In this document: positions 2,371 to 17,070 of the stretch, one piece after another
Position numbering within the stretch: the first letter of the stretch is position 1
Layout of the letters: every line of letters starts with the position of its first letter
Assembly (NCBI GenBank): GCA_964460435.1
Contig: CAYWRH010000002.1
Span: forward strand, 15,500-79,499
Origin: an uncultured Desulfatiglans sp.
GTDB taxonomy: Bacteria; Desulfobacterota; DSM-4660; Desulfatiglandales; HGW-15
Direction: 5' to 3'
DNA: 64,000 nucleotides
The notes under the pieces: model-generated
What the model was told of the DNA's origin: nothing
What the model saw: the letters and a program-made list of their open reading frames with translations, nothing else
Database searches by the model: none
Program-made: the position numbers and the translations under genes

Positions 2371-5007
2371 TTAACCGGCAATAATTTTATCAATTGATTC
2401 CAGGGCCTGAGCAAGTTTTTGCGGGTTACTGCCGCCGCCCTGGGCCATATCTGGCCTGCCGCCGCCCTTTCCTCCAACAAGCTCTGACATCTCATTTATG
2501 ATCTTCCCTGCATTATATCTCTTTGTAAGGTCATCCGTGACTGCGCATATGAGCATAACCTTTCCTTCGCTCTTTGAGCCCAGGACTATAATCCCGGATG
2601 CCAATTTTTCTCTTATCCTGTCCACATAATCGCGGAGCTCCTTTGGTGACGAGGCTTCAATCTCTTTGGCAAGCACCTTTATTCCGCCAGTCTCTTTCAA
2701 GCCTGAAAGGATATCACCTGATTCCCTTGAAATGATCTTTGCCTTGAGGGCTTCAATCTCGGCATCCTTCTGCTTCTGGTCTCTTAATAACTGATTTATT
2801 TTTTCTATTAGCTGATCCGGAGCAGTCTTTAACAATGCGGCAGCCTCTTTTATCTCATTATCCTGTGTCTGCGAAAAAAGAACAGCTGCTTTGCCGGTTA
2901 CAGCCTCAATCCTTCTGACATTGGCAGCCACTGCCCCCTCTGACACTATCTTGAAAAAGCCTATATTGCCTGTGCTGTGCGTATGGGTGCCCCCGCAGAG
3001 CTCCTTGCTTACTCCTTCTCCTACACTTACCACCCTGACATTTGCGCCATACCTCTCTTCAAATATGGCCATAGCACCTGTCTTTGATGCCTCTTCCCTT
3101 GTCATCACCTCTGTCGTAACAGGGTGATTATCCCTGATATGCATGTTTACAAGGGCCTCCACCTCCATGAGCTTTTCCTTTTCAACCTGGGCAAAATGGC
3201 TGAAATCAAAACGCAGCCGCTCAGCAGATACCTGCGACCCTGCCTGCTTGACATGATCTCCTATTATCTCCCTGAGGGCGCTGTGTAAAAGATGTGTAGC
3301 AGTATGGTTTGCCTGTATGGCCCTTCTTCTTTCATAATCCACGAGTGCGGTTATCTCATCACCTATTTTTACAATGCCGTCCGCCACTTTGCCTTTATGT
3401 ATAATAAGGTCAGTGCCTGCCTTTATGGTATCTGTGATCATGATCTTTACACTGCTGTTACTGAGCGTGCCCTGATCCCCGACCTGGCCGCCGCTTTCGC
3501 CATAAAAGGGGGTGGATTCAAGGACTATTTCCACAGCATCATTCGCCTTTGCCATAGATGCCTCCCTGCAATCAACAAGGATGGCAGATACCTTTGATTT
3601 ATATGGCTGTATCTGATCACGGATAAAAAGAGACCGGCAGCCGCCTGAGGCAAGCTTCTTGTAAACCTCCGGTATCTTCTCTTCCCCGCTCCCCTTCCAT
3701 GATTCCCTTGACTGGTTTTTCTGGGATGACATGGATTTTTCGTATGAATCCATATCGATAGTCAGCCCTTCATCCCTGGCAACATCCTGCACTATGTCAA
3801 GCGAGAGACCATAGGTGTCATAGAGCTTAAAGGCAAGCTCTCCGGGGATTACATTGCCCCTGCCGGACTTGATCCTTTCTATCTCATCGCTCAGTATCTT
3901 CATGCTGTAGAAGAGTGTGTCAGCAAACCTCTTTTCCTCATTAATTAGAACCCCTTTGATAAATGATCTTGACCCCTCAAGGTCTGTATAGTGGCCGCCC
4001 ATTGCATCTATCACACTCTCCGCAACGCTGTGAAAGAATGGGCCTTTAAATCCTAAAACCTGTCCATACCTGATGGCCCTGCGGATTATGCGCCTTAATA
4101 CATAGCCGCGCCCTTCATTTGAGGGCATAATGCCATCGCCTATAAGAAAGGCGGCTGCCCTTGCATGGTCTGAAATAACCCTGAAGGAGAGATCATATCT
4201 CTCATTATCGCCGTATTTTATGGAGGAAAGCTCCTGGATTCGGTTTATGGGCACACTGAAGATATCTGTATCATAATTGCTTTTTACGCCCTGGATAACC
4301 GCTGTTACCCTTTCAAGACCCATGCCTGTATCAATGTTGGGTTTTGGCAGCGGTGTGAGTTTGCCTGACGGGCTTCTGTCAAACTGGGTGAATACAAGGT
4401 TCCATATCTCCAGAAACCTGTCACAGTCGCATGCAGGGCCGCAGTCAGGCCTGCCGCAGCCAACAGATGCCCCCTGGTCAAAGTGTATCTCAGAACATGG
4501 GCCGCATGGGCCTGTGTCACCCATTGCCCAGAAATTATCCTTTTCACCGAGCCTTGTTATGCGCGAGGCAGGGATGCCTATCTTTTTTTCCCAGATATCA
4601 TGGGCCTCATCGTCATCCTTGTATATGGTGATATGCAGCCTATCCCTATCAAGCTTATAGCCCTCCATAAGCAGTTCCCATGCCCATGTAATGGCCTCCT
4701 CCTTGAAATAGTCGCCAAAGGAGAAATTGCCGAGCATCTCAAAAAAGGTGTGATGCCTTGCAGTATAGCCCACATTTTCAAGGTCATTGTGCTTTCCGCC
4801 TGCCCTTACGCACTTCTGGGAGGTGGCAGCCCTGGTGTAGCCCCTTTTTTCTTCCCCTAAAAAAAGCCCCTTGAACTGCACCATCCCGGCGTTTGTAAAC
4901 AGGAGGGTCGGATCATCCCTGGGGATAAGTGATGAACTTGCTACAATCTCGTGGCCCTTGCCCCTGAAAAAATCAAGGTACTTTGCTCTGATTTCCTTGT
5001 GATCCAT
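2371..5007 (-). CDS. alaS: alanine--tRNA ligase
   Basis: 878 aa. Class II AlaRS signature HHTFFEMLGNFSFGDYFK, editing-domain HTATHLLH and C-terminal GGKGGGRPDMAQGGG are all present. Confidence 0.97.
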   Translation of the reverse strand: MDHKEIRAKYLDFFRGKGHEIVASSSLIPRDDPTLLFTNAGMVQFKGLFLGEEKRGYTRAATSQKCVRAGGKHNDLENVGYTARHHTFFEMLGNFSFGDYFKEEAITWAWELLMEGYKLDRDRLHITIYKDDDEAHDIWEKKIGIPASRITRLGEKDNFWAMGDTGPCGPCSEIHFDQGASVGCGRPDCGPACDCDRFLEIWNLVFTQFDRSPSGKLTPLPKPNIDTGMGLERVTAVIQGVKSNYDTDIFSVPINRIQELSSIKYGDNERYDLSFRVISDHARAAAFLIGDGIMPSNEGRGYVLRRIIRRAIRYGQVLGFKGPFFHSVAESVIDAMGGHYTDLEGSRSFIKGVLINEEKRFADTLFYSMKILSDEIERIKSGRGNVIPGELAFKLYDTYGLSLDIVQDVARDEGLTIDMDSYEKSMSSQKNQSRESWKGSGEEKIPEVYKKLASGGCRSLFIRDQIQPYKSKVSAILVDCREASMAKANDAVEIVLESTPFYGESGGQVGDQGTLSNSSVKIMITDTIKAGTDLIIHKGKVADGIVKIGDEITALVDYERRRAIQANHTATHLLHSALREIIGDHVKQAGSQVSAERLRFDFSHFAQVEKEKLMEVEALVNMHIRDNHPVTTEVMTREEASKTGAMAIFEERYGANVRVVSVGEGVSKELCGGTHTHSTGNIGFFKIVSEGAVAANVRRIEAVTGKAAVLFSQTQDNEIKEAAALLKTAPDQLIEKINQLLRDQKQKDAEIEALKAKIISRESGDILSGLKETGGIKVLAKEIEASSPKELRDYVDRIREKLASGIIVLGSKSEGKVMLICAVTDDLTKRYNAGKIINEMSELVGGKGGGRPDMAQGGGSNPQKLAQALESIDKIIAG

Positions 5008-5025
5008 ATATAGAATAATCCTTTA

Positions 5026-6057
5026 TCATTCCTGAGTTTCAGACTCGTTCGCAGATTTTGCCTTCCAGATACCTGCCTTTTCCCTGACAAGATCAGATAT
5101 CCGGTTTAAAATATCCACATTTTCAGAGAGGAATTTTTTTACATTCTCCCTGCCCTGGCCAATCCTCTCACCTTCAAAGGAGTACCATGCACCGCTCTTT
5201 TCAACTATGCCCATATCAGCTCCAAGGTCAAGCACATCACCCTCCTTTGATATGCCATGCCCATAGATGATATCAAACTCAGCCTCCTTGAAGGGCGGGG
5301 CCACCTTGTTCTTTACCACCTTTACCTTGGTCCTGCTGCCTATTACATCGTTCCCCTCCTTTATGGCGCCTGTGCGGCGGATATCGAGCCGCTGGGTCGC
5401 ATAGAATTTAAGGGCATTACCGCCAGTGGTGGTTTCAGGGCTACCGAACATTACCCCTATCTTCATCCTGATCTGGTTGATAAATATTACGCATGTCTTT
5501 GATTTGCTTATGGTGGCTGTAAGCTTCCTTAATGCCTGTGACATGAGCCTCGCCTGAAGGCCCATATGCTGATCGCCCATATCGCCCTCAATCTCTGCCC
5601 TTGGCACAAGGGCCGCAACAGAGTCAATAACAAGCACATCAATGGCGCCGCTTCTTACAAGTATCTCCGCTATATCAAGCCCCTGCTCGCCTGTATCGGG
5701 CTGTGAAACAAGGAGGCTGTCAACATCTACCCCAAGATTTCTGGCATAGGCCATATCAAGGGCATGCTCTGCATCTATAAAGGCGACCATACCATCTCTC
5801 TTTTGTGCCTCTGCGGAGATATGCAGGGCAAGGGTGGTTTTGCCGGAGGATTCAGGGCCATATATCTCAACAACCCTTCCCCTTGGCACACCGCCTACCC
5901 CAAGGGCAAGGTCAAGGGCGAGGGAACCTGTGGGGATAGCAGGCACAGCAATGATATTATCATCGCTCATCTTCATAATGGAGCCCCTGCCAAACTGCCT
6001 TTCAATCTGGGAAATGGCCTGTTCAACCGCCTTGTTTCTTTCTAAAGTTTCCGCCAT
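5026..6057 (-). CDS. recA: recombinase RecA
   Basis: 343 aa. Walker [10 protein letters not shown], the FIDAEHALD motif and L2-loop region are present. Gene lies 18 nt upstream of alaS. No recX lies between them. Confidence 0.98.
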
Positions 6058-6116
6058 AAATTACCCCCTTGTTATCTACATGTTTTTTTATAAAACAGTT
6101 AAATCGTCTTTATTAG

Positions 6117-6175
6117 CAAACAAAGATAAGATGACCTGTCAATGTAAGCCCATTCTTATACTACAAACAAAGATA
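6117..6175. repeat. perfect 12-bp direct repeat CAAACAAAGATA x2 in the recA upstream region
   Basis: Copies lie at 6117-6128 and 6164-6175, 47 bp apart. They bracket a minus-strand TTGACA (-35-like) element upstream of recA. Confidence 0.6.
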
Positions 6176-6180
6176 GAAAG

Positions 6181-6897
6181 TCAATACTTCCATTCCGCAT
6201 GACTTGCAGGCAGTTTATTGAGCTCTTTTTTCAATTGCGCCCAGTTTGGCAGGTATTTGTCAAGAAAATATAAAAATCTATCGTTATGGTGTCTTTCCAT
6301 AAAATGAACCATCTCATGCACAATGATATATTCAAGGCATTTTTCGGGTTTTTTAGCCAGTTCCAGATTAACCCATATCCTCTTTTTTTCAATATTACAT
6401 GATCCCCATCTGGTCTTCATATGACGGACCTGCCAGTCATTTACCTTTACATCCAGCCGTTTTTCCCATTTTTCAATTATTAAGGGCACCTGTTTTTTAA
6501 GTTCAGCCCGATACCATTCAGTTAATATTTCATGCCTCTTGGCTATAGATGCTCCGGGTCTTATAAAAAGGTTGATATGCCTCTTGTTTTTAATAATGAC
6601 CTTTGGTTGGGCATCAGTCTCAATGATATTTAACAGATACCTGTGCCCCTGGAAGTAATGGCTCTCCCTGTTCAGGTACTCCCTTTCCGGGAGTCTCTCC
6701 TGCCTCTCGAATTTCTGCCTGTTTCTCTTTATCCAGCCGATTTTTGAAATAATAAAGAGTCGGATAGTATCATCATTCACTTTATGCGGCGCTGCAATAC
6801 GCACCCTTCCTGCCGGAGGGTAAACTCCCAGGTGAATGTTCTTGATATCTTTACGAACAACATCAATCTTAAAATTGCTTACAGTAATCTGTCCCAT
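6181..6897 (-). CDS. M48/DUF45 (YgjP-like) zinc metallopeptidase
   Basis: 238 aa with an HExxH motif (IIVHEMVHFMERHH). Its start overlaps the hsdR stop as TAATG, indicating translational coupling. Confidence 0.8.
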   Translation of the reverse strand: MGQITVSNFKIDVVRKDIKNIHLGVYPPAGRVRIAAPHKVNDDTIRLFIISKIGWIKRNRQKFERQERLPEREYLNRESHYFQGHRYLLNIIETDAQPKVIIKNKRHINLFIRPGASIAKRHEILTEWYRAELKKQVPLIIEKWEKRLDVKVNDWQVRHMKTRWGSCNIEKKRIWVNLELAKKPEKCLEYIIVHEMVHFMERHHNDRFLYFLDKYLPNWAQLKKELNKLPASHAEWKY

Positions 6898-9800
6898 TAA
6901 TAGTCTTTCTGGTTTTTAACAATGTCGAATATTCTGGATACTTCAGCATCATCTTTTATCCCGTATCTATTTAATGCCTCAGAAATAGCATGCCGAACCG
7001 CCTTTGATTTCTGGAAGTGATCTCTCCACCCATCCTTTTTTGTAGCCATGATTCTTTTATCAAGTTCCTCAGCGATTTTTTCATTTTTCTCAAGGTTGTC
7101 ATATAAAGCCCGTTTAGCTTTCGTGTCCATTGAAAGCGGGTAGTCAGTTGCAGTATCCGGTTTTTTTATCTTCCCTGAAAGGGCAATGACCTCCTCAAGA
7201 TATTTTTCATATTCAATGGTGGCCTCTTTCCTTAGCCGGATGAGTTCCTTTAAAAGCACACTCATTTTTTCATAATATACCGGGTTGGTCGGGCTTTCCT
7301 CGATTATCAGCCTTCGCAGGTTATTTTCAATAACCTCAGCCATTGCATCTTTGTTATTTCTGATATTTGCGGGGAATTCTTTTATGGCATCCTTACCTCT
7401 TTCAATCAGTAATTCAACCAGACTCAAGTCATCAAAGTTGGCGAGCATCCGGCTTTCTTCTGCCCCAATATAGCTGTCTATCAGATGCCGCATTGCAGGC
7501 TCATACTGCTTTAAATCCACATAATCACCGCTTGCAAGCTGTATCTCCTTACGCAGGTTCTCAAAATGTTTAACATCATTTTTGATCTGCTCTGCTTCTC
7601 TATCTGAATAGCCCGCCTCTTTCATCTCATCCGCAATGTTTGCATATGCCCTGATAAGTGAAATGGTGTTTTTATACAAAGAGACGCGCCTGGGTTCAGT
7701 ATCTTTTAGCTCATCAGGGTTTTCAATATCCTTTCCGCAAAAGTAGCGTATATTGGAAATGGTGTCTTTTGGAGGATCAACAGCCTCACACAGCGCCTTT
7801 ATGGCCTCAAGGGCCTCATCCAGCCTTTCCTTCCCCTTTTGCAGGCGGTCCTTTAAAAGACCGTCAATATCTGTCTTTTCATACCCGCCAAAAACCTCAG
7901 AGGTATAATCCTTAAATGCCGCCTCAAGGCTCCTGAAAAGATCCATATAATCAATTATATATCCATACTCCTTGTCATCGCCATCAAGCCTGTTTACACG
8001 GCAGACCGCCTGAAAAAGCCCATGATCTCTCAGCTTTTTATCCAGATAAAGGTAGGTGGCCGGAGGCGCATCAAACCCGGTAAGGAGTTTATTAACTACA
8101 ATCAGCAATTTCATCTGTGCCGGTTCTTCCACAAACCTTTTCTTTACCTCCAGCTCAAACTGCTCCACCTTGTTTATTGCAGTTTCAGGGGATTCATTAA
8201 AATAGTCTGCCAGCATCTTTTGGTAAATCTCAAAACGCTGCAACCTTTCCGTATACCCTTCGCCTGATTCTTCCAGCTTTATGTCCCTGTGGGATGGCAC
8301 AAAAGATGTAACAATAGCGCACTCTTTTAATCCTGCGCTCTGGAACAAATCATAATAGCGGCAGGCATTATATATGCTGTCGGAAACCAGAATGGCATTT
8401 CCCCTGCCATTCTGTAAACGTTCCTTTCTTGCCATATCCAGCATAATATCCAGCACAATCTTTTCAAGCCGCGACTTCGAGCTGAACACCTTTTTCAAGG
8501 TGCCCCATTTCTGTTTCAGCTCTGTCCTGGCAAAATCACTAAGCCCTCTGGTTTTAAGATCAAACCATTCATCAATCCTTTCCGCTGATGTGATCTTCTG
8601 CTCTATATCCCTTGCCTCATAGCGTAAATCCAGCACTACCTTATCGTTAACAGCCTCATCAAATTTGTATGTATGGATGTATCTGCCAAAGGTCTCAAGG
8701 CTGGTCTGTTTGTCGGATTTTAATAATGGAGTGCCGGTAAAACCAATAAAAAGGGCATCAGGCAAAAACTGTTTCATTGCCTTATGGAGCTTGCCCGTTT
8801 GCGTTCTGTGACATTCATCAACAAAGACATATAGATCCCCTTTGGCCTTAAAGTTTGAAGGGATATTGTTTCGCAGTTCCTCCAGATAGGCATCCACATC
8901 TCTGTCATCAACCTCCTCCTTGCCTCCAAATTTGTGAATGAGCGAGCACATCAAAAGAGGCGAATTGTCATTTAGCCTGTTAAGCAGGTCTTTTCCGCTT
9001 ATTGTCCGGTAGATTTTTTCATTAACGCCCTTAAATACCTTTTCAATCTGTTCATCCAGCTCATCCCGGTCAGTAATAATCAGCACCCTGGCATCAGGAT
9101 TATGTTCCCTAAGCCACCGGGTGAGCCACACCATGGTAAGGCTCTTGCCGCTTCCCTGTGTGTGCCAGATTATTCCACCCTCTTTACGTTTCACAAAATC
9201 CTGCGCCGCCTTGATTCCAAAATACTGGTTAGGCCGCGCAAGCTTCTTCTCTCCCCTGTCATAAACAATAAAATCATGGATCAGCTCAATAAACCTCTCC
9301 TTGTTAAGCAGTTCCACAATGTTTTTATCAAGGGGATAGTCATATTTGGAAGCCCTGTCACGGATGGACTTGGTGAGGTTAAGAAGGTAAGGATAGTCCC
9401 TGTTAAACTCTTCATTTACCTCTTTCCACTTGAGAAAGTATTTCTCTTTTGTGCCTACTGCCCCGTATTTAAGTCCCTCAACATCGTTGCCTGCCATGAT
9501 AAATTGTATTGTATTAAAGAAGGGCTTTATAAAGATATGCTTCTGGTTATCCAGGTTCTGCCTGATACCCTCGGAGATTGACACTGTGCTGCGTTTAAGT
9601 TCCAGAACCCCTAAAGCTATGCCGTTTACATATATAACAATATCAGGCCGCTTCTTATGAAAGCCCCTGATGGTGACCTCCTCTGCAATAGAAAAATCAT
9701 TTTCAAGCGGATGCTCCCAGTCAATGAGCCACACAGTTTTTTTATTCTGCCCGATATCAGGCAGGACATCCACGCCATAGCGGAGCATGGAATAAAGGTC

Positions 9801-10088
9801 TTTGTTAGCATCATACAAAGACCTGCTCTGGTCATTGGCTACATTTCTGAGTTCGTGGAGGGCCTTGCCTATAAGGTTTTCGCTGTAATACTTACGGTTA
9901 AGATATTCTCTCAGAATATCTTCTTCAATGTTGCTGTTCTCATCACGCTCTTTCCAGTTTCCGAGATAATTATATCCCAGTTCTTCATTAAGTAGCAGGA
10001 TTACCCTGTTTTGCGTTTCTCTCTCTTGTTTGCCGAGGTTTGATAATGGTGAATGGTGAGTTGTGAATGGTGAATTAGTTTTTATCAT
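6897..10088 (-). CDS. hsdR: Type I restriction endonuclease subunit R
   Basis: 1063 aa. Helicase motif I (HTQGSGKSLTMV) and DEAH-type motif II (VFVDECHRTQ) are present. The N-terminal GKQERETQNRV...SNIEE block is typical of this family. The first ~15 codons lie inside a GTGAATGG repeat arm. Confidence 0.95.
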   Translation of the reverse strand: MIKTNSPFTTHHSPLSNLGKQERETQNRVILLLNEELGYNYLGNWKERDENSNIEEDILREYLNRKYYSENLIGKALHELRNVANDQSRSLYDANKDLYSMLRYGVDVLPDIGQNKKTVWLIDWEHPLENDFSIAEEVTIRGFHKKRPDIVIYVNGIALGVLELKRSTVSISEGIRQNLDNQKHIFIKPFFNTIQFIMAGNDVEGLKYGAVGTKEKYFLKWKEVNEEFNRDYPYLLNLTKSIRDRASKYDYPLDKNIVELLNKERFIELIHDFIVYDRGEKKLARPNQYFGIKAAQDFVKRKEGGIIWHTQGSGKSLTMVWLTRWLREHNPDARVLIITDRDELDEQIEKVFKGVNEKIYRTISGKDLLNRLNDNSPLLMCSLIHKFGGKEEVDDRDVDAYLEELRNNIPSNFKAKGDLYVFVDECHRTQTGKLHKAMKQFLPDALFIGFTGTPLLKSDKQTSLETFGRYIHTYKFDEAVNDKVVLDLRYEARDIEQKITSAERIDEWFDLKTRGLSDFARTELKQKWGTLKKVFSSKSRLEKIVLDIMLDMARKERLQNGRGNAILVSDSIYNACRYYDLFQSAGLKECAIVTSFVPSHRDIKLEESGEGYTERLQRFEIYQKMLADYFNESPETAINKVEQFELEVKKRFVEEPAQMKLLIVVNKLLTGFDAPPATYLYLDKKLRDHGLFQAVCRVNRLDGDDKEYGYIIDYMDLFRSLEAAFKDYTSEVFGGYEKTDIDGLLKDRLQKGKERLDEALEAIKALCEAVDPPKDTISNIRYFCGKDIENPDELKDTEPRRVSLYKNTISLIRAYANIADEMKEAGYSDREAEQIKNDVKHFENLRKEIQLASGDYVDLKQYEPAMRHLIDSYIGAEESRMLANFDDLSLVELLIERGKDAIKEFPANIRNNKDAMAEVIENNLRRLIIEESPTNPVYYEKMSVLLKELIRLRKEATIEYEKYLEEVIALSGKIKKPDTATDYPLSMDTKAKRALYDNLEKNEKIAEELDKRIMATKKDGWRDHFQKSKAVRHAISEALNRYGIKDDAEVSRIFDIVKNQKDY
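10041..10085. repeat. GTGAATGG-type octamer array (downstream arm of the degenerate 4HB cassette)
   Basis: The sequence ttgataatggtgaatggtgagttgtgaatggtgaattag matches 11624-11659. It overlaps hsdR codons 2-16. Confidence 0.8.
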
Positions 10089-10090
10089 TT

Positions 10091-10237
10091 TTATTCCTTT
10101 ATACAGATTGCCGTACCGCTTCTTAGCAATTGCTTACTTAAGATGTACTCCTTCTTTTCATCCTGCAAATATTTAAAGAGCTTAACCACTCGCAAGGCAA
10201 AGGCAAAACTTTTATCTTTAACAACATTTTCTCTCAT
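10091..10237 (-). pseudogene. internally deleted four-helix-bundle (23S rRNA IVS-type) gene remnant
   Basis: It keeps ~44 N-terminal codons (MRENVVKDKSFAFALRVVKLFKYLQDEKKEYILSKQLLRSGTAI) that align with the intact copy at 11881-12022. It then jumps to the last ~20 nt of that gene (tagtttttatcatttttat). About 190 bp are missing. The frame ends at TAA 10091-10093, 2 nt before the hsdR ATG. Confidence 0.65.
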
Positions 10238-10270
10238 GCCATTCACCCTTTACCATTCACAATTCAGAAT
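10238..10270. repeat. CCATTCAC-type octamer array (upstream arm of the degenerate cassette)
   Basis: ccattcaccctttaccattcacaattc is identical to 12024-12050. Confidence 0.8.
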
Positions 10271-10273
10271 TAA

Positions 10274-11623
10274 TTAAAGAATCTCCCAATGACCTCCCTT
10301 TTTAGGGCCTTTATAAGCTATCTTTCCTTCCTTCTGTAATCTGGACGCAGCTTTTTCAACGGCTCTGATTGACTTCCCTATCTGTTCTGATATTTCTACA
10401 AGGGTGATATTCGGATTTTTTTCTATTTTATCCATTATTGCATCAGTGGTTTTTACCGTCGTTTTTACCGTCGTTTTTACCGTCGTTTCTACCGTCGTTT
10501 TAGTATCGACCTCTGAATCGGAAAAGTGGAATATCATCCATAAACCATTCGGTTCATATTCTATTTCAAATCTGGCAGTCCCTGATTCCAAGCATGCTTC
10601 GGATATTTTTTCAATTCCGCGGCCCCAGGCCTCTATCATTCCGGCGCGGAAGAACACGTCTGCTATATCAGGGTTAAAAGGCTGTGAAGAATGCTTTTTT
10701 ATAAGGGTATCAACTGTCCATCCTTCAGGCAAGGTTCCCGGATTCCATAGCATGACCTTGTTGTCATAAACGCTTATCTGGATAGGAATAGAACTCCCAT
10801 AATCCTTATGGGCTACCGCATTAAGAAGAGACTCCCGCAGGGCTTTTTCCGGAACCGGATAGGATTCTATTCGCTGGACACCCTTGTATGAAATCCTTGC
10901 ATGAAGATATTTTGTAAGTAGAATATCCATGGTTTTATCAACCTGAGTGAACAGGTTCCCATGAATCTCATCATGAAAGAGAAGGTCAGCATCACTCTTA
11001 AAAAATCCCACCTTAATAAACGACCCGGTTACATATTTTTCAGGATCAGGGTGAAATAGCAGGATAGACGCCCTTTTGAAGTATGTTTTCTCCTTGAGGT
11101 GAAGTTTATCCATCAGGGAACTATCAGAGTCATTCAATATCTCTGCTGGCAAACGCTTGCTTAACAGCGCCTTTTCTCTGAAGATACTTATTGTCTTTTT
11201 ATCAAAATCAGCAAGTTTAAGATTCGGCACAGGAACACCATCCCAGTGTCTGCCCTGTTTGCTGAGTAAAAACCGGTCAAGGGCAGCGCCTTTCAGCTCC
11301 TGTTTTGTGCTGCCGCTCCGGTAATGGTATTCGCCGCAATAGCTTACCGGGTAGGGGTAGGGAGCAACCACAATTTCAAGGTATTCCTTTTTCTTTTCCG
11401 ATTTCAGGTTTACATCAACCATAATTCCAAGGATGTCACGAACCTTATTCGGGATATCTTCAAGGAGTTTTTTGACATTGGATAATCCTACAACGTTACC
11501 ATTGTCATCTTTACCAATATAAAGAACCCCGCCTTCAGCATTTGCATAACCGCAAATCCATTTAAGGTAATCATCACGCCATGATGTCTTGAATTCTATA
11601 TTCTGGTTTTCTTTCATAAGCAT
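10274..11623 (-). CDS. AlbA_2 (Schlafen-like) domain protein with RecG-C-like/HATPase_c_4 region and C-terminal wHTH
   Basis: 449 aa. The N-terminus ENQNIEFKTSWRDDYLKWICGYANAEGGVLYIGKDDNGNVVGL fits the AlbA_2 pattern. The C-terminus (IEKNPNITLVEISEQIGKSIRAVEKAASRLQKEGKI) looks like a winged helix. Family call is from memory. Confidence 0.75.
   Translation of the reverse strand: MLMKENQNIEFKTSWRDDYLKWICGYANAEGGVLYIGKDDNGNVVGLSNVKKLLEDIPNKVRDILGIMVDVNLKSEKKKEYLEIVVAPYPYPVSYCGEYHYRSGSTKQELKGAALDRFLLSKQGRHWDGVPVPNLKLADFDKKTISIFREKALLSKRLPAEILNDSDSSLMDKLHLKEKTYFKRASILLFHPDPEKYVTGSFIKVGFFKSDADLLFHDEIHGNLFTQVDKTMDILLTKYLHARISYKGVQRIESYPVPEKALRESLLNAVAHKDYGSSIPIQISVYDNKVMLWNPGTLPEGWTVDTLIKKHSSQPFNPDIADVFFRAGMIEAWGRGIEKISEACLESGTARFEIEYEPNGLWMIFHFSDSEVDTKTTVETTVKTTVKTTVKTTDAIMDKIEKNPNITLVEISEQIGKSIRAVEKAASRLQKEGKIAYKGPKKGGHWEIL
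10449..10508. repeat. in-frame 12-nt tandem repeat (gtttttaccgtc x4 plus one degenerate unit)
   Basis: Units lie at 10449-60, 10461-72, 10473-84 and 10485-96 (one substitution), with a degenerate unit at 10497-508. They encode TTVETTVKTTVKTTVKTT in the linker before the wHTH. Confidence 0.9.
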
Positions 11624-12073
11624 TCCAATTGTGAATTGTGAGTGGTAAATGGTGAATTAGTTTTTATCATTTTTATCACCTTTTGCGGTAAGGATGATAG
11701 ATGCAAGTAATTTTTTTAGTTCAGTTATATCAGGGATTATTGAATTGTACTGCACTGTTTCTAGATATTCCGATTTATATAAAAGATCAAGCCAGTATTC
11801 GGTTTCGTTTGCTTCCTTTTGAGCGATCGCCATTTTGTGAATGAAATCGGCTTTGCTTTCCGCCTGTTCTGCCTCACGTATCAAAGCTCCGATTGCTGTG
11901 CCGCTTCGAAGTAGTTGCTTACCTATAACATATTCTTTCTTTTCATTCTGTAAGTACTGGAAAAGTTTAACGATCCGCAAAGCAAAGGCAAAACTTTTAT
12001 CTTTAACAACATTTTCCCTCATGCCATTCACCCTTTACCATTCACAATTCATCATTCACCCTTCACCATTACT
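11624..12073 (-). mobile_element. four-helix-bundle gene cassette bounded by inverted octamer arrays (IVS-like element)
   Basis: A GTGAATKG array (11624-11656) and a CCATTCAC array (12023-12073) are reverse complements and flank the ORF directly. A second, deleted copy and an ORF-less arm pair occur in the same island. Confidence 0.45.
11657..12022 (-). CDS. four helix bundle protein (23S rRNA intervening-sequence protein family)
   Basis: 121 aa from the ATG at 12022; the track extends to a GTG at 12031. MRENVVKDKSFAFALRIVKLFQYL...SGTAIGALIREAEQAESKADFIHKMAIAQKEANETEYWL is the typical family pattern. Confidence 0.85.
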   Translation of the reverse strand: MRENVVKDKSFAFALRIVKLFQYLQNEKKEYVIGKQLLRSGTAIGALIREAEQAESKADFIHKMAIAQKEANETEYWLDLLYKSEYLETVQYNSIIPDITELKKLLASIILTAKGDKNDKN

Positions 12074-13273
12074 TCAAATCAGTCTAACCTTCCCTGTCAG
12101 CAAAACCTGCATCATGCCCTGTTTTATCATTCGGTATTTATCCAGTTTTTTCTCAAGGGCTTCTATTTCGGCATCCATGTCAGAGAGAATTTGCGCGATT
12201 CGGGTTTGTTCCTCTTTTTCTTTTGGTAAATGGATTTTTATTTTATACATTTGAGATTTATTCAATTTTGCTCTGGTTCCACTTGCTAATAAATCTAAAA
12301 TATTTTTATGAACTAAAGAATAGTAAATGAAATTCTGATCAAATTGTGCTTTTGCTTTTAAAATGTGCGCATGATTATTTACCCAAAATTTACCTTTCAT
12401 TTTGTATGCTATCGGCCTTGTTGCATATTCATCAAAGTAACCACCATCTTCTGCAATTAGAATGACGTCATCATTTATTTTATAATCATTAAGATAATCT
12501 AAAATACCATTCGCACCACAATAGGGGTAATCACCTTGCATGGCTAGCCTTTGTGTTTCATTTAATGGCAACCTCAGATTGTCTAAACAATCAGTCATTT
12601 TTTCTAAGTTGATCCCTTCCCAGCTTCGCTTCGGTTTAAGCAACTCCTGCATAGCCCCCTGCTTGACGGCTCGCTTTTTTGCAATGAGTTTTTCCAATTG
12701 GGTAATGAGAGAATCGACATCATTTAAAGCAGTGGCTATGGCGGTCTGCTCGGCTTTTGTGGGGGGAAGAGGTATTTGAAACTTTCTTATTCTTGCAAGT
12801 GCTAATTTGGGTTGTGCACCTAATGTTTTTTCAGCTTCAATTTTATTTTGGATCAACCAAGACATTAAAACATAAAGTAAATAATCTCTAACGCAAGAAA
12901 TATTTGTAAGTCTATCTGCGTTCTCAGTAAGATTCGCACCATTTAATATAGGAGGGATTTTGCCCACTAATCCTAATGTTCCTGCGACAGAGATAAAAAT
13001 ATCATCATTAAAAATACAATAATTTTTAATTGAAGGATATACATCATTAGGTAAATATTTGATGTCATTTAAAGAAACACTTCCCATAGACATATCTGCA
13101 ACACGAATATAAAAATGATCTGTTTCTTTGTCTGTAAGTGATTTGCCTAATGGTAATCTTTTCCCACTTCTTACTTCTGAAACATCGTTGATAGCTAATA
13201 CTCTCCAATCATTTGGAATAATCCCAACTTCTGTTTCTTTGAACCCTTCCGGTATTTTTTTAAGATTTACCAT
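12074..13273 (-). CDS. hsdS: Type I restriction-modification specificity subunit S
   Basis: 399 aa. Two variable target-recognition regions are separated and followed by conserved helical spacers (IPLPPTKAEQTAIATAL..., LPKEKEEQTRIAQILSDMDAEIEALEKKL). Confidence 0.9.
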   Translation of the reverse strand: MVNLKKIPEGFKETEVGIIPNDWRVLAINDVSEVRSGKRLPLGKSLTDKETDHFYIRVADMSMGSVSLNDIKYLPNDVYPSIKNYCIFNDDIFISVAGTLGLVGKIPPILNGANLTENADRLTNISCVRDYLLYVLMSWLIQNKIEAEKTLGAQPKLALARIRKFQIPLPPTKAEQTAIATALNDVDSLITQLEKLIAKKRAVKQGAMQELLKPKRSWEGINLEKMTDCLDNLRLPLNETQRLAMQGDYPYCGANGILDYLNDYKINDDVILIAEDGGYFDEYATRPIAYKMKGKFWVNNHAHILKAKAQFDQNFIYYSLVHKNILDLLASGTRAKLNKSQMYKIKIHLPKEKEEQTRIAQILSDMDAEIEALEKKLDKYRMIKQGMMQVLLTGKVRLI

Positions 13274-13306
13274 TCAAGCTGCATCCATTTTAAAACAATA
13301 AACTGG

Positions 13307-13329
13307 ATTCCCCGATCAAGTCGGGGAAT
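13307..13329. repeat. REP-like hairpin attccccga-tcaag-tcggggaat
   Basis: A perfect 9-bp stem lies in the hsdM-hsdS spacer. It belongs to the short GC-rich palindrome class seen elsewhere in the window. Confidence 0.6.
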
Positions 13330-13360
13330 GACGTGGTGGTTGATATTGTCTTTTTATTAA

Positions 13361-15805
13361 TCAAAATGAAAACCCCATTTTAGCAAGATGCATTCTAACT
13401 TTGTCTTCAAGCTTACTGACCTCCTCCATTTGAGCAGGCAAAGGCGTTTCATACCGTTCCGCAAGCTCCTTAATACGCTGCGTGAGCCTGTGGCTGATAT
13501 TATCCATCTCTGTTTCAATTCTCTTTCCGATATTTTGCATCCACTTCTTTTCCACAACAATATGTTTTATCTCATCAATGGTCAGTTTCGGGTACTGAGC
13601 TATCACCTTCTTTTCAAGTTCAGCCTTTGCAATCCTTATTTTCTCCCTTGCCTTTTTTTCATCCTCCATGAGCCCTTTATACTTATGGAGCAGGTCATAC
13701 TCTTCAGCATTATCAGCACTCCTTTTACCCAGCTCCCTTATTGCCTTATCTAGGGAGACTTTGCTGATCTTCCCTTTGTCATCCACAGCGTTGCCAAGCA
13801 GACCTTCTTCGCCACTATGCTCTTCTCTAAACTCTTCCATGCTGGCAGTTAAGGATTCAACCTGTATTTCGAGATCATCTATGACCTTCTGCTCTTTTTC
13901 AAAATACTCCTGAATCATCAGGACAGGCGGTATAAGCCTTCCTTCCAGCCCTTCAATCCCCTGAACCTCTTTTACTATCTCCCTGTCGCCCTTTTTTGTC
14001 TTCTTTTCTACCCTGTTCACAATATTGCCTGCTGACCAGCCATCGGCTGCAAGCTCATAAAAATCATCCTGCATGGTCTCTGCCCAGTAATCCATAAGAT
14101 GCTGGTATATGGTGTATTTATCAATGAGCGGTTTATCTGTGTAATGCCCAAGCAGGCTTTCTGAAATTCTCTTTATCTCATGCTTTGGCTTTATTCCCTT
14201 TTTTAGCGCCATAAGATATATAGCGGTCTCTTGTTTCCAGCGTCTAAACACAGAGCTCATCTTTTTGGCAAATGCAATAAACTCAGGGTGTGAAAAGATC
14301 TCATCCCTTATTTTTGAATAGGGAATGGATAATTCAAGATAACCTTTCCTGCCATTTTTAAATAAATGTTTTTTTAAAGTGGGGTACACCTGCCAGTATT
14401 TTTCAAGGGCATCAATATCCCTTTGGGGTATGCCTCCCAATAAATGGGCCTCTATGTCCTGGAGATCTTCCTCCTCCTGACTATCGATATACCTTGGTAT
14501 ATTCAGGTTATAATCGTTTCTGGGGTCTGCGATTTCCTCGACAGGAATGATACGTGAATATTTGGGGATCTCAATGCGGCGGTTGAACGTATCCACAATC
14601 CTGTGTATATCCTGTTCCCTGAGCCGGTTTTTATTGCCATCCTTTATAAACCCCTTGCTGGCATCAATCATGAAGATATCTTTTCGCTCTGCGGCCTTTT
14701 CCTTGTCTATCACGACCAGACTTGCTGCAATGCCTGTCCCGTAAAACAGGTTGGGAGGAAGGCCTATGATACCCTTTATATAACCCTTCTGAATTATCTT
14801 CTTCCTGATCTGGGCCTCCGCATTGCCACGGAACAGCACGCCAAGGGGAAGAACAATACATGCCTTGCCCTTAGACTTTAGGGATTTTATCAGGTGAAGC
14901 AGGAATGCAAAGTCACCATTCTTTGCAGGCGGAACAGCATCATAACCTTCAAACCGCTTATAGATATCATTAACAGGATCAACTCCATTCATCCATGACT
15001 TATAGCTGAAGGGCGGATTTGAGACCGCATAATCAAACTGCTTTAGTTCTCCGGTAGTATCATTTTTAAACTCAGGGGCAGCAAGCGTATTTCCCTGTAC
15101 AATCTCTGCATCAGGGTTGTCATGGAGCCACATGTTCATAACTGCAAGCGCCCGGGTTGCATTGTCATTTTCCTGGCCATATATGGTTATTCCATAAGGG
15201 GCTTCATCAGCCGCCTTTAAAAGTAATGACCCTGAACCGCATGTGGGGTCATATATGGTTTCGGACTGGCTTTTGGAATTTTCGATCCCGATCACCTTTG
15301 CCATGACTCGGGAGACCTCGGCAGGGGTATAGAACTGCCCCTTGCTCTTGCCGCTTTCTGTGGCAAAGTGCCGCATGAGGTATTCATAGGCATCGCCAAG
15401 CAGGTCATCTCCCTCTGCCCTGTTGCCGCTGAAATCCAGCTCTTTCTTTTCAAAAATGGTTATGAGATTGGTAAGTTTGTCAACCTTGTCTTTGCCCTTG
15501 CCAAGTTTTTCATCATCATTAAAATCAGCAACTGTGATAACGCCGGTAAGCCCGTTTGCCTTTGCAAACTCGCCTATGATTTTATTGATCTGGTCGCCGA
15601 TATCGGATTTGCCTTTGTGTTTTACCATGTCGTAAAAACTTGCATTTGGAGGGATATCAATAAGAGGGTCTTTTTTGTCAGAGACATATTTCATGAAGAG
15701 CATAACCAGCACATAATCCTTGTACTGGCTGGCATCCATGCTGCCGCGGAGTTCATCACAACTTGCCCAGAGTGAACTGTATAATTCTGATTTTTTTATA
15801 GCCAT
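13361..15805 (-). CDS. hsdM: Type I restriction-modification DNA methyltransferase subunit M (long form)
   Basis: 814 aa. SAM-binding DPTCGSGSLL and catalytic NPPF (VSNPPFSYKSW) are present. A ~300-aa coiled-coil-rich C-terminal extension follows. Confidence 0.95.
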   Translation of the reverse strand: MAIKKSELYSSLWASCDELRGSMDASQYKDYVLVMLFMKYVSDKKDPLIDIPPNASFYDMVKHKGKSDIGDQINKIIGEFAKANGLTGVITVADFNDDEKLGKGKDKVDKLTNLITIFEKKELDFSGNRAEGDDLLGDAYEYLMRHFATESGKSKGQFYTPAEVSRVMAKVIGIENSKSQSETIYDPTCGSGSLLLKAADEAPYGITIYGQENDNATRALAVMNMWLHDNPDAEIVQGNTLAAPEFKNDTTGELKQFDYAVSNPPFSYKSWMNGVDPVNDIYKRFEGYDAVPPAKNGDFAFLLHLIKSLKSKGKACIVLPLGVLFRGNAEAQIRKKIIQKGYIKGIIGLPPNLFYGTGIAASLVVIDKEKAAERKDIFMIDASKGFIKDGNKNRLREQDIHRIVDTFNRRIEIPKYSRIIPVEEIADPRNDYNLNIPRYIDSQEEEDLQDIEAHLLGGIPQRDIDALEKYWQVYPTLKKHLFKNGRKGYLELSIPYSKIRDEIFSHPEFIAFAKKMSSVFRRWKQETAIYLMALKKGIKPKHEIKRISESLLGHYTDKPLIDKYTIYQHLMDYWAETMQDDFYELAADGWSAGNIVNRVEKKTKKGDREIVKEVQGIEGLEGRLIPPVLMIQEYFEKEQKVIDDLEIQVESLTASMEEFREEHSGEEGLLGNAVDDKGKISKVSLDKAIRELGKRSADNAEEYDLLHKYKGLMEDEKKAREKIRIAKAELEKKVIAQYPKLTIDEIKHIVVEKKWMQNIGKRIETEMDNISHRLTQRIKELAERYETPLPAQMEEVSKLEDKVRMHLAKMGFSF

Positions 15806-15861
15806 GAGTTATTCTTTTGTTTTGGTTTTTGGGGATAATAACACTTGAAGGCAAATAAGGA

Positions 15862-15919
15862 AATGGTGAATTGTGAATGGTTAATAATGAATGATTTTTT
15901 CTTGCCATTCACCATTCAT
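15862..15919. repeat. ORF-less inverted pair of GTGAATGG / CCATTCAC arms
   Basis: aatggtgaattgtgaatgg (15862-15880) and ccattcaccattcat (15905-15919) are separated by a 24-nt AT-rich loop. The right arm overlaps the lpxB stop codon (15916-15918). Confidence 0.75.
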
Positions 15920-17070
15920 CCCTTCATCATCTCAAAGGCGAGCTGTGCGGTTCTTTTTGAGGCGCCGGGCCCGCCGAGGCTTTCAGTGACCCTGGCCAGT
16001 TTTTCCTTGATCTCTTTCTTTTTGTTCTCGTCACAGAGAATGCCAACGGCCCTTTCAGCTATGATATCAGGGCGAACATCCTCCTGTAAAAGCTCGGGCG
16101 CAACCTCTTCCCCTGCCACAAGGTTGACAAGCCCGGCATACGGGACCTTAACCACCCGTTTGGCAATGCTGTATGAGATTTTAGACATGCGGTAGGTAAC
16201 AATCATGGGCACGCCCATGATTGCTGTCTCAAGGGTGGCGGTTCCTGATGCCACAAGGGCAAGATCGCTCACCTTAAGGGCGCGGTAAACCCCCTTAGCG
16301 GTTGTGATAACATTAAGGCGTGAACCCCGTATCATCCTTTTAATATGATCCTGCGATATGGTGGGCGCGACAGGTATTATACATTTAAGGTTTGGCACAC
16401 GTGAGGATATTATACCTGCTGCCTCAAGCATGACAGGCAGAAGTTTTGAGACCTCTTCATCCCTGCTTCCCGGCATAAGGGCAATAACAGTCTCCTCCTT
16501 TTTCAAACTGAACTCCTTCTCTATGGCCATCCTGTTCATGGATAGGGGCACCTGATCCATTAATGGATGGCCCACATATTCGACAGGGATATCAGCGCCT
16601 GTCTTAAGGTAAAAATCCTTTTCAAAGGGGAGGATTACAGCCATGCGGTCCACCCTTTTGGCAAGTTTTTTGACCCTTCCGCTTCTCCAGGCCCAGAGCT
16701 GCGGGCTTATATAATAGAGCACAGGCACGCCGAATTTTTTTGCAGCGCCCGCCAGGCTGATGTTAAAGCCAGGGTAATCGATGAGAATGAGGAGATCGGG
16801 TTTTTCCCTTTTCAGTATGGAGCGCATCCTGAAATAGGAGCTAATAATAGCACCTGACCTTGAAAAGACCTCTGTTAAACCTACAGCCGCCATCTGGGAG
16901 GCATGGGTAACTATCTCCACCCCGGCAATGACCATCTTGTCGCCGCCAATGCCCCTGAACATGATATCGCGGTCAATATCCTTCATGGCCTTCACAAGAT
17001 TTGCCCCGTGCAGGTCGCCCGAGGCCTCGCCTGCCACTATAAGCACATATCTGGAACCATAGCTGTTCAT
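15916..17070 (-). CDS. lpxB: lipid-A-disaccharide synthase
   Basis: 384 aa. N-terminal VAGEASGDLHGANL and the family-wide pattern are present, within an lpx cluster. Confidence 0.93.
   Translation of the reverse strand: MNSYGSRYVLIVAGEASGDLHGANLVKAMKDIDRDIMFRGIGGDKMVIAGVEIVTHASQMAAVGLTEVFSRSGAIISSYFRMRSILKREKPDLLILIDYPGFNISLAGAAKKFGVPVLYYISPQLWAWRSGRVKKLAKRVDRMAVILPFEKDFYLKTGADIPVEYVGHPLMDQVPLSMNRMAIEKEFSLKKEETVIALMPGSRDEEVSKLLPVMLEAAGIISSRVPNLKCIIPVAPTISQDHIKRMIRGSRLNVITTAKGVYRALKVSDLALVASGTATLETAIMGVPMIVTYRMSKISYSIAKRVVKVPYAGLVNLVAGEEVAPELLQEDVRPDIIAERAVGILCDENKKKEIKEKLARVTESLGGPGASKRTAQLAFEMMKG

Follow-up and report, generated by a model that had tools for sequence, protein, structure and literature searches.

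The hsd locus and its two cassettes

A 64-kb window from the genome of an uncultured Desulfatiglans sp. (the window is the whole stretch of DNA analyzed here, and all coordinates are positions within it) contains a type I restriction-modification operon in which two related cassettes are found, each built around a gene for a four-helix-bundle (4HB) protein of the PF05635/TIGR02436 family. One of the two is intact, and the other, which has been deleted internally, lies immediately upstream of hsdR, the gene for the restriction subunit. Our analysis points to this second cassette having replaced the native start of hsdR, and it is probable that HsdR is now made from a cassette-supplied AUG at position 10088. 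The genes of the operon, both 4HB cassettes and a third site consisting of an arms-only hairpin are all on the minus strand, and the order of the operon is hsdM-hsdS-(4HB)-Schlafen-like-(remnant)-hsdR-ygjP:

15805-13361, minus strand: hsdM
13273-12074, minus strand: hsdS
12031-11657, minus strand: intact 4HB gene (PF05635, 98 bits; TIGR02436, 106 bits)
11623/11617-10274, minus strand: Schlafen/AlbA_2-like gene, with Schlafen/AlbA_2, HATPase_c_4 and helix-turn-helix (HTH) parts
10246-10091, minus strand: remnant 4HB open reading frame (ORF), 51 codons from GTG 10246
10088-6897, minus strand: hsdR, 1063 codons (TIGR00348, HSDR_N, SWI2_SNF2, T1R_D3, PADLOC REase_I)
6897-6181, minus strand: YgjP-like gene, after which comes recA

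HsdR is a full-length member of its family: it scores 539 bits with TIGR00348 (cut-off 285), carries the HSDR_N, SWI2_SNF2 and T1R_D3 domains, and matches the PADLOC REase_I profile (PDLC03044) with 1405 bits over residues 17-1061.

The remnant cassette upstream of hsdR

The segment at 10044-10271 (minus strand) is a copy, shortened by an internal deletion, of the 4HB cassette that is intact at 11624-12084. Local alignment of its 5' part (10266-10106 against 12051-11891 of the intact copy) matches at 135 of 161 positions, with a single difference over the 5' arm plus the gene's initial ~60 nt, and its 3' part (10100-10045 against 11683-11627) matches at 51 of 57 positions, including an exact run of 29 nt, ATAAAAATGATAAAAACTAATTCACCATT. 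The intervening 207 nt of the intact copy (11890-11684) are absent from the remnant, and TGTAT stands in their place. What is retained is the 5' arm, 44 codons of the 4HB gene, the last 24 nt of the gene with its stop codon, and the 3' heptamer arm:

10238-10271, minus strand: 5' arm, AATTCTGAATTGTGAATGGTAAAGGGTGAATGGC, made of GGTGAAT-type heptamers, its last 28 nt identical to the 5' arm of the intact copy
10091-10237, minus strand: truncated 4HB ORF, 48 codons from ATG 10237 (51 from GTG 10246)
10101-10105, minus strand: deletion junction, with the 5-nt filler TGTAT replacing 207 nt of the 4HB gene
10075-10100, minus strand: retained 3' tail of the 4HB gene, AAAGGAATAAAAATGATAAAAACTAA, equal to 11683-11657 of the intact copy apart from one gap and one mismatch
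10044-10076, minus strand: 3' arm, AATTCACCATTCACAACTCACCATTCACCATTA, which forms hsdR codons 5-15 (NSPFTTHHSPL)

An initial annotation, made by a model from the DNA letters and a list of ORFs, had already described a remnant that kept ~44 leading 4HB codons, a count that proves exact when made from ATG 10237. It was also right that the gene end and the downstream arm are kept and that the copy is deleted internally, although its figures of ~20 nt for the former and ~190 bp for the latter are somewhat low against the lengths given above.

The 5' arm starts directly after the TAA stop codon of the Schlafen/AlbA_2-like gene (10274-10276). Within the remnant ORF the 44 codons derived from the 4HB gene are followed by C-I-K-E and the stop codon TAA (10093-10091), the deletion having shifted the frame; by tblastn the ORF shares 87% identity with the intact 4HB protein's residues 1-47. 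It scores 33.9 bits with TIGR02436 (cut-off 24) and 30.8 bits with PF05635 (E 3.6e-07; gathering score 33.8), and its match spans only profile positions 1-43, where a full-length four-helix-bundle match takes in ~106-109 residues. We regard it as a truncated derivative with two of the four helices, and not as a functional member of the family.

The start codon and N-terminus of hsdR

Three elements are found in the 3' tail of the remnant: a sequence resembling a Shine-Dalgarno (SD) site, AAGGA (10099-10095); the ATG of hsdR (10088-10086); and the former 4HB stop codon TAA (10077-10075), which in the hsdR frame is now read within ..ACT AAT... The hsdR ORF opens at this ATG, 11 nt before the former stop, and reads the tail and the arm as MIKTNSPFTTHHSPL; the last codon of the 3' arm, TTA (10046-10044), sits at the position of the native hsdR methionine. 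The initial annotation had recognized that the end of the intact gene, AAT GAT AAA AAC TAA, becomes ATG ATA AAA ACT AAT TCA when read one base out of phase, and in the remnant this frame does run without a stop into hsdR. Its claim that no in-frame ATG, GTG or TTG lies between this ATG and the recognizable HsdR block is likewise correct: the next such codon is codon 91 (TTG 9818), well within the conserved HSDR_N domain, and the next in-frame ATG is codon 101.

The hsdR gene carries in this way a cassette-derived start and an N-terminal extension of 14 residues. The boundaries of the profile matches lie just beyond it, position 3 of REase_I falling at residue 17 and position 3 of Pfam HSDR_N at residue 21. 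An AlphaFold2 model of HsdR (56 sequences; mean predicted local distance difference test, pLDDT, 82.6) has residues 1-14 with pLDDT <50 and the first helix at residues 17-36, and in a 56-sequence alignment residues G19, E22, R23, T25, Q26 and R28, which belong to the motif GKQERETQNRV, are near-invariant or invariant. A search of PDB sequences with the HsdR N-terminus matched only EcoR124I, at residues 114-204, and the N-terminal tail was not covered.

The exact 1063-aa HsdR protein is called on 10 contigs, one of them 282 kb long, and the public gene calls use ATG 10088. A second strain (L211) has the same arrangement, with two differences in 10.3 kb. Given that 10 contigs yield the same protein and that L211 shares the arrangement, an assembly artefact is unlikely. 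Over window positions 4010-14367, L211 is 99.98% identical to the window; its own positions 1-397 diverge inside hsdM, where the gene call covers only 283 aa, reflecting either a disruption at the level of the strain or an assembly chimera.

Native starts in orthologous HsdR proteins

The N-termini of 120 full-length HsdR homologues and 120 N-terminal fragments were compared. The alignment of orthologues that the initial annotation had proposed as a check gave a clear outcome: half of the full-length proteins (60/120) begin with M-x-x-(I/V)-G-(K/Q)-x-E-R-x-T-Q, the methionine falling exactly at Leu15 of the window protein, and most of the 120 fragments start at the same place. Approximately 40 of the 120 full-length homologues bear an unrelated N-terminal domain of ~125 aa, and a few bear short unrelated extensions of 4-22 residues. 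Since homologues bear unrelated extensions, and since residues 1-14 of the AlphaFold2 model have pLDDT <50, the cassette-encoded extension is likely a harmless, disordered tail in front of the first helix.

At five orthologous loci an ATG is found precisely where the window has TTA, abutting or overlapping the stop codon of the upstream gene and with no arm before it; native coupling in the orthologues is tight, taking the form of an ATGA overlap or of 1-nt gaps. The window HsdR departs from the N-terminus of its subfamily, M-S-x-(I/V)-G-(K/Q)-x-E-R with an upstream-coupled ATG, in having TTA at this position and 14 codons of arm and tail before it.

The closest orthologue (L090) has the same gene order, and its HsdR and the neighboring Schlafen/AlbA_2-like protein are 86 and 85% identical to those of the window. 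Its Schlafen-like/hsdR junction is free of any cassette and shows the native ATGA stop/start overlap, ...TTAAAATGAGCGGC (...CATTGGGAGATTTTAAAATGAGCGGCGTCGGA; junction TTAAAATGA), whereas at the same junction the window reads ...CATTGGGAGATTCTTTAA, then the remnant, and then ...CACCATTA joined to TCAAACCTCGGC. From this comparison it follows that the cassette sits on the former stop/start overlap and that the ATG has been lost.

The starts of the orthologues, the five loci, the empty site in L090 and the profile boundaries all agree with the central claim of the initial annotation, that a cassette replaced the native hsdR initiation region and left a chimeric N-terminus. Cassette-free orthologues sharing the extension, which it had named as a refutation, were looked for among the homologues and none was found; the NSPFT-type extension is restricted to the cluster of the window protein and to two further proteins (P0178 and P0110), each with cassette sequence upstream.

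Fusions in other HsdR lineages

The first of these, P0178 (77% identity), comes from a Deltaproteobacteria metagenome-assembled genome (MAG; L089) and has the N-terminus MAKNNSPFTIHNSPFTIHNS-TIGNLERATQ. An intact 4HB gene lies upstream of it, and the last 14 nt of that gene overlap hsdR from its ATG onward, the ATG being 11 nt before the TAA. The second, P0110 (54% identity), from a Brocadiae MAG (L001), has the N-terminus MNQNNSPFTIHHSPFY-SVGQKERETQ; here the 4HB gene is reduced to its last ~14 nt, which remain together with the 3' arm downstream of an unrelated pair of small genes. In all three fusions the methionine codon has been replaced, codon 2 and what follows have been kept, and the ATG lies at offset -11 relative to the 4HB stop.

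The tails of the three fusions differ (ATGATAAAAAC, ATGGCAAAAAA and ATGAACCAAAA), and for this reason they are read as what appear to be independent events. The intact cassette in L089, the internally deleted one in the window and the stub of tail plus arm in L001 suggest a series of decay through which the ATG and the arm persist. We also considered an import of the remnant, together with an already fused hsdR, from an operon like that of L089; this was ruled out, as the remnant and the window's own intact copy have the same tail, which is unlike the tail in L089.

Initiation signals and predicted RNA structure

The AAGGA sequence occupies positions -11 to -7 relative to ATG 10088, leaving a spacer of 6 nt, and the TAA of the remnant ORF ends 2 nt upstream of the same ATG. 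An SD core is found with 17 of 42 long ORFs in the window against a background of 15%, and the host can therefore be taken to use such sites. In the predicted folds of the remnant, the 5' and 3' arms pair in both the minimum free energy (MFE) and the centroid structures, the SD sequence and the AUG are free of pairing, and the arm stem does not start until about codon 5 of hsdR; the arms of the intact copy also pair in both kinds of fold. Whole-region z-scores for the remnant, intact cassette and arms-only hairpin regions were not significant.

Scanning positions 9900-16100 for promoters and terminators gave counts at the level of shuffled sequence, with none on the minus strand just upstream of hsdR; because no such site is seen there, hsdR is probably co-transcribed with the genes that precede it, and there is no sign of a promoter borne by the cassette. 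That the sequence and structure of the cassette control hsdR translation, as was suggested in the initial annotation, is a reasonable view, and one that we infer.

Proposed origin and use of the chimeric start

In the course of events that we propose, the Schlafen/AlbA_2-like gene and hsdR once overlapped stop to start, and a 4HB cassette entered at this overlap. Sequence comparison shows that this removed the native hsdR ATG and that a start was kept by way of the out-of-frame ATG, 11 nt before the 4HB stop. The frame opened by this ATG meets the former stop as ACT AAT, finds no stop in the (TTCACCA)n arm and continues into hsdR from codon 2. An internal deletion afterwards took away 207 nt and left a shortened ORF of 48 codons ending 2 nt before the hsdR ATG. 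HsdR would then be made from AUG 10088 with the extension MIKTNSPFTTHHSP, a leucine replacing the native methionine and the disordered, tolerated tail preceding the first helix. Initiation could proceed through the AAGGA 6 nt upstream, through termination and reinitiation by ribosomes that have translated the remnant ORF, or through both; such ribosomes would start on the 5' arm and end beside the hsdR AUG, and would thus open the stem and be well placed to reinitiate. The output of hsdR probably depends on ribosomes holding the arm stem open, and cleavage of the stem by RNase III, of the kind that the intervening sequences of rRNA undergo, may lower it. Given the tight coupling in the orthologues (ATGA, 1-nt gaps), the chimera appears to recreate the native coupling logic with parts of the cassette. 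The hsdR frame has stayed open while the cassette had time to lose its 207 nt.

Several points weigh against this proposal. The use of AUG 10088 is something we infer, and the in-frame status of the ATG is on its own a weak argument: as the arm has no stops, chance alone would put the tail ATG in phase one time in three. The fold energy of the remnant region is not better than that of shuffled sequence (z = -0.49), and only the pairing of the arms stands out. A mid-stem cut by RNase III, as in Coxiella, would sever AUG 10088 from hsdR, so that by this analogy cleavage would be either inefficient on translated mRNA or a cause of lowered HsdR output. The ratio of non-synonymous to synonymous substitution rates (dN/dS) of hsdR, 0.053 in comparison with L090, mostly reflects history before the insertion, and the two differences between L211 and the window (one of them E931D) are too few for a measure of selection after the fusion.

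The alternative that best survives these points, which we nevertheless consider unlikely, is that hsdR was recently silenced: the start would have been destroyed, an upstream ATG would be in frame by chance, and the locus would produce no HsdR and act as a methyltransferase only. An ORF of 3.2 kb that is still intact beside a cassette which has lost 207 nt and diverged by 16% from its sister copy is difficult to reconcile with silencing, even if the chance of an in-frame ATG is as high as ~1/3 with an arm that is stop-free in every frame. A stem beginning at codon 5 could hinder initiation; against this stand an AAGGA at the right distance and a stop codon 2 nt upstream of the ATG. The low dN/dS also argues against silencing, within the limit just given. 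Two other HsdR lineages, moreover, show a rescue of the same kind, and in one of them the cassette has been reduced to an ATG-bearing tail and an arm.

It is much less probable that translation begins at a near-cognate codon farther downstream or on a leaderless processed mRNA, the arm peptide then lying outside the protein. A cut of the 23S type by RNase III in mid-stem (PMC4990558) would indeed remove AUG 10088, and ATA at codon 2, ATC at codon 30 and CTG at codon 31 are candidate starts; however, all three are without an SD sequence, initiation at codon 30 or 31 would delete the GKQERETQNRV motif with its invariant and near-invariant residues, and no ATG, GTG or TTG is met before codon 91.

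That the NSPFT-type N-terminus is native or ancestral, stems from a wrongly called start or arose by chimeric assembly at a repeat can practically be dismissed, for although repeats do break assemblies and one contig (L003) ends 138 nt upstream of hsdR, the extension is missing from the syntenic L090 and most other homologues examined, the DNA that encodes it shares 89% identity with the intact cassette's 3' end and arm at a distance of 1.5 kb, and the protein is called identically on the 10 contigs mentioned.

The intact cassette, the arms-only hairpin and other states of decay

The other copies of the cassette in the window are arranged as follows:

11624-12084, minus strand: intact cassette, between hsdS and the Schlafen/AlbA_2-like gene
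~12032-12084, minus strand: 5' arm of the intact cassette
12031-11657, minus strand: 4HB gene of the intact cassette
11658-11624, minus strand: 3' arm of the intact cassette
15862-15923, minus strand: hairpin consisting of arms only, with heptamers of the same family, located between lpxB and hsdM

The intact 4HB gene, whose product is a full-length member of both PF05635 and TIGR02436 (at the scores listed above), is bracketed by inverted heptamer arms, (GGTGAAT)-like upstream and (ATTCACC)-like downstream. A heptamer-arm pattern allowing up to three mismatches (<=3) has 19 matches in the window against 0.86 expected, and all 19 fall at three sites, namely the two cassettes and the arms-only hairpin. 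An Rfam scan of the whole window found no family at gathering score and no rRNA, both cassettes being flanked by protein-coding genes, and a scan of 9900-12200 found one match only, at chance level; the cassette arms are no curated RNA family.

The intact copy has the same out-of-frame ATG (11670), preceded by the SD-like AAGGTGAT, and this ATG opens an 18-codon ORF, MIKTNSPFTTHNSQLECL, which runs through the 3' arm to a TGA (11616-11614) overlapping the ATG (11617-11615) of the Schlafen/AlbA_2-like gene. Behind the intact cassette that gene lacks an SD sequence of its own, whereas its orthologue in L090, with no cassette, is preceded by GAGGTGAT. The 18-codon ORF and its ATGA overlap look like a translational relay.

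The arms-only hairpin is probably the end state of cassette decay. The last codons of lpxB and its stop (ATG ATG AAG GGA TGA) lie within its 5' arm (window 15862-15930), and an arm may thus supply the stop codon of an upstream gene. A further state of decay is seen in L090, where the position of the window's intact cassette (L090 4500-4670) is taken by degenerate arms around ~75 nt of unrelated sequence; the HsdS frame enters the 5' arm there (...LIKNNGEL*) and so has an arm-encoded C-terminus.

The Schlafen/AlbA_2-like protein itself contains a tandem repeat, TTVETTVKTTVKTTVKTT (window 10440-10500, minus-strand coding), where its L090 orthologue has NDGKNDGKNDGK; between its ATPase-like and HTH parts the protein thus has an in-frame repeat that varies.

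4HB cassettes across genomes

The cassette was surveyed at 80 genome loci (L004-L083) encoding 4HB proteins 56-73% identical to that of the window, in Bacteroidota, Acidobacteriota, Verrucomicrobiota, Cyanobacteria, Planctomycetota, Nitrospirales and Gammaproteobacteria. Heptamer arms are present at nearly all of the 80 loci, with units that vary (TTGTCAA, TTATCAA, TTTTCAA, TTCACAA, TTCACCA), and the complementarity of the arms is greater within a locus than between loci (median 42 against 31, p = 1e-11, for 78 related cassettes). The cassettes lie between co-oriented operon genes, and the 3' arm ends ~0-15 nt from the downstream ATG in most of the loci inspected by eye. Among the downstream genes are those for HSDR_N proteins (7/75), GHMP kinases (7/75), ABC-2 permeases (5/75) and RhuM (3/75), and among the upstream genes those for mevalonate decarboxylase (12/70), ABC ATPases (7/70), N6_Mtase (3/70) and Methylase_S (3/70); other flanking pairs are a gene for a HipA N-terminal domain with a HipA_C gene after it, and hsdS with hsdR after it.

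Within the final 30 nt of the 4HB gene, ATG codons are concentrated at two offsets, -11 (10 of 85 cassettes) and -1 (12 of 85, as ATGA). Five of the 10 reading frames opened at -11 are fused to a long downstream ORF, including those of an EcoR124-like HsdR (L030/L036), a RhuM gene (L009) and the HsdR of L089; three end in an ATGA overlap, the window's intact copy among them, one stops 11 nt short and one does neither. Frames with an overlapping ATG are fused to a long downstream ORF in 11 of 29 cases, against 15 of 141 control frames (Fisher p = 8e-4; 85 related cassettes), and are either fused or coupled downstream in 20 of 29 against 60 of 141 (p = 0.008), in tests that treat the cassettes as unrelated and ignore their kinship. 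Several of the fusions also have, within the arm, a TTG that offers another start. Stop codons on the sense strand are more frequent in 5' arms (12 per 100 nt) than in 3' arms (5.25; 62 related cassettes); the 5' arms close all three frames in 45 of the 62 cassettes, and the 3' arms are without any stop in 15 of them. The orientation of the cassette is asymmetric with respect to translation. The idea that a 3' arm is stop-free by universal design was considered and is only partly true, given that the arm in the window is stop-free but those of just 15/62 relatives are.

These distributions raise a tentative hypothesis, which we think more doubtful than probable: that 4HB cassettes are specialized for the junctions between operon genes and possess a built-in translational hand-over. 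A TGA-rich 5' arm would close incoming frames, and an ATG at -11 or -1 that overlaps the stop of the 4HB gene would restart the ribosomes, which would read the stop-poor 3' arm, melt the stem, and either end on the next start (ATGA) or continue as the N-terminus of the next protein. Such a role is weakened by the ~2/3 of cassettes that have no overlapping ATG and, on a rough estimate, by the frequency of the ATG at -11 (10/85), which is about that expected by chance for a conserved N-x-K-K tail.

A metagenome scan for the exact 14-mer TAATTCACCATTCA gave 132 sites that were mostly unrelated, some of them solo arm hairpins and none following a recognizable 4HB ORF; the pattern is unspecific.

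Two further kinds of start were seen at individual loci. In a Flavobacterium MAG (L025) and in L033, the start codon of aroA (EPSP synthase) overlaps the 4HB stop as ATGA, and the frame continues across the arm (MNLLLNSQFIIHNSQL...); the L025 aroA also holds the in-frame internal arm-like peptides ALLNSQFTIHNSPLIDIHH and NPQLVTFNSQLSN, which L033 is without. At five other loci (L011, L019, L013, L081 and L050) there is no downstream ATG after the arm, and a TTG in the last heptamer (CAATTG/CCATTG) is in frame before a conserved N-terminus, as in TTG AAC GAA GCC GAA ACC, which would give the (M)NEAETR of an HsdR. Arms may therefore donate TTG starts as well.

Comparison with known elements

ORF-bearing intervening sequences (IVSs) of 23S rRNA are known in Leptospira, Coxiella, Xanthomonas and Brucella, and encode the four-helix-bundle protein “S23p.” In the Coxiella IVS the S23p ORF is under reductive evolution, three GACAGAT heptamers are present, and a 28-bp stem is cleaved by RNase III in its middle (PMC4990558). 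The cassettes of the window resemble these elements in encoding a PF05635/TIGR02436 protein and in having tandem heptamers before the ORF and terminal inverted repeats that pair (the stem of an IVS being ~25-28 bp); the window also shows the same series of decay, from intact to internally deleted to arms only. They are unlike them in location, lying at protein-gene junctions of an operon and not in helix 25 or 45 of the rRNA, and in that the 3' arm of the cassette is translated and the tail of its gene gives the next gene its start codon. The cassette would work like an intervening sequence moved from rRNA to mRNA, with excision by RNase III proposed by analogy only.

The Correia elements of Neisseria are small inverted repeats that are co-transcribed with their neighbors, have stems cleavable by RNase III and alter adjacent expression. 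They differ from the cassettes in being non-coding and restricted to a lineage, and in supplying promoters or processing sites; we know of no Correia element that supplies a start codon or N-terminal residues. The palindromic elements of Rickettsia are reportedly non-coding, 100-150 bp in length, limited to that genus and inserted inside genes. With them the cassettes, that of the L025 aroA included, share the feature that a palindromic repeat is taken up in frame by a host protein, which is not destroyed by it; here, by contrast, the repeat belongs to a gene cassette as its arm and replaces an initiation region without forming an internal loop, and the likeness is that of a functional analogue only.

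In integrons, ORF-11 in attI1 and the stems of attC are said to affect the translation of cassettes. There too the mRNA folds into a stem at the cassette junction, and a short ORF reportedly ferries ribosomes through it to a gene with no initiation region of its own. The 18-codon arm ORF of the intact copy (with its ATGA) and the remnant ORF with hsdR behind it seem to follow the same logic; the likeness is functional only, the coupling in the window being predicted from sequence, and the arms here are heptamer arrays.

Intergenic heptanucleotide repeats of TAACTGA, described in Beggiatoaceae, Cyanobacteria and Bacteroidetes, lie a short way upstream of start codons (PMC4679880). Like the cassette arms, these are tandem 7-nt units that end a few nt from a start codon, change by steps of 7 nt and occur in the same phyla. 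Unlike the arms they are direct repeats, with no inverted partner and no 4HB gene; the paper describing them does not mention S23 or helix-bundle proteins and does not report them as donors of start codons. In the literature we found no description of 4HB cassettes at operon junctions or donating start codons, although coverage was incomplete and this is weak evidence of novelty. We consider the finding to be a mobile-element-derived chimeric gene start in an intervening-sequence-like cassette.

Implications

HsdR is the dangerous half of a type I system, its level relative to the methyltransferase deciding whether the cell's own DNA is cut. In this organism the sole canonical start of hsdR belongs to a decayed selfish cassette and lies beside a stem of the kind that RNase III cuts in rRNA; if AUG 10088 is used, restriction activity depends on the sequence of the cassette. 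Were the hand-over hypothesis true, the chimeric start would be an expected outcome of cassette design and not an accident, and the stem together with RNase III would set the ratio of restriction subunit to methyltransferase. A warning for annotation also follows, in that arm-encoded N-termini (NSPFTIH...) are not native protein sequence. More generally, relatives of the 23S rRNA IVSs are found at operon junctions in many phyla, and at some of these the cassette appears to donate the start codon, or the first residues, of the next gene, which gives a testable handle on the old question of what these elements are and why genomes tolerate them.

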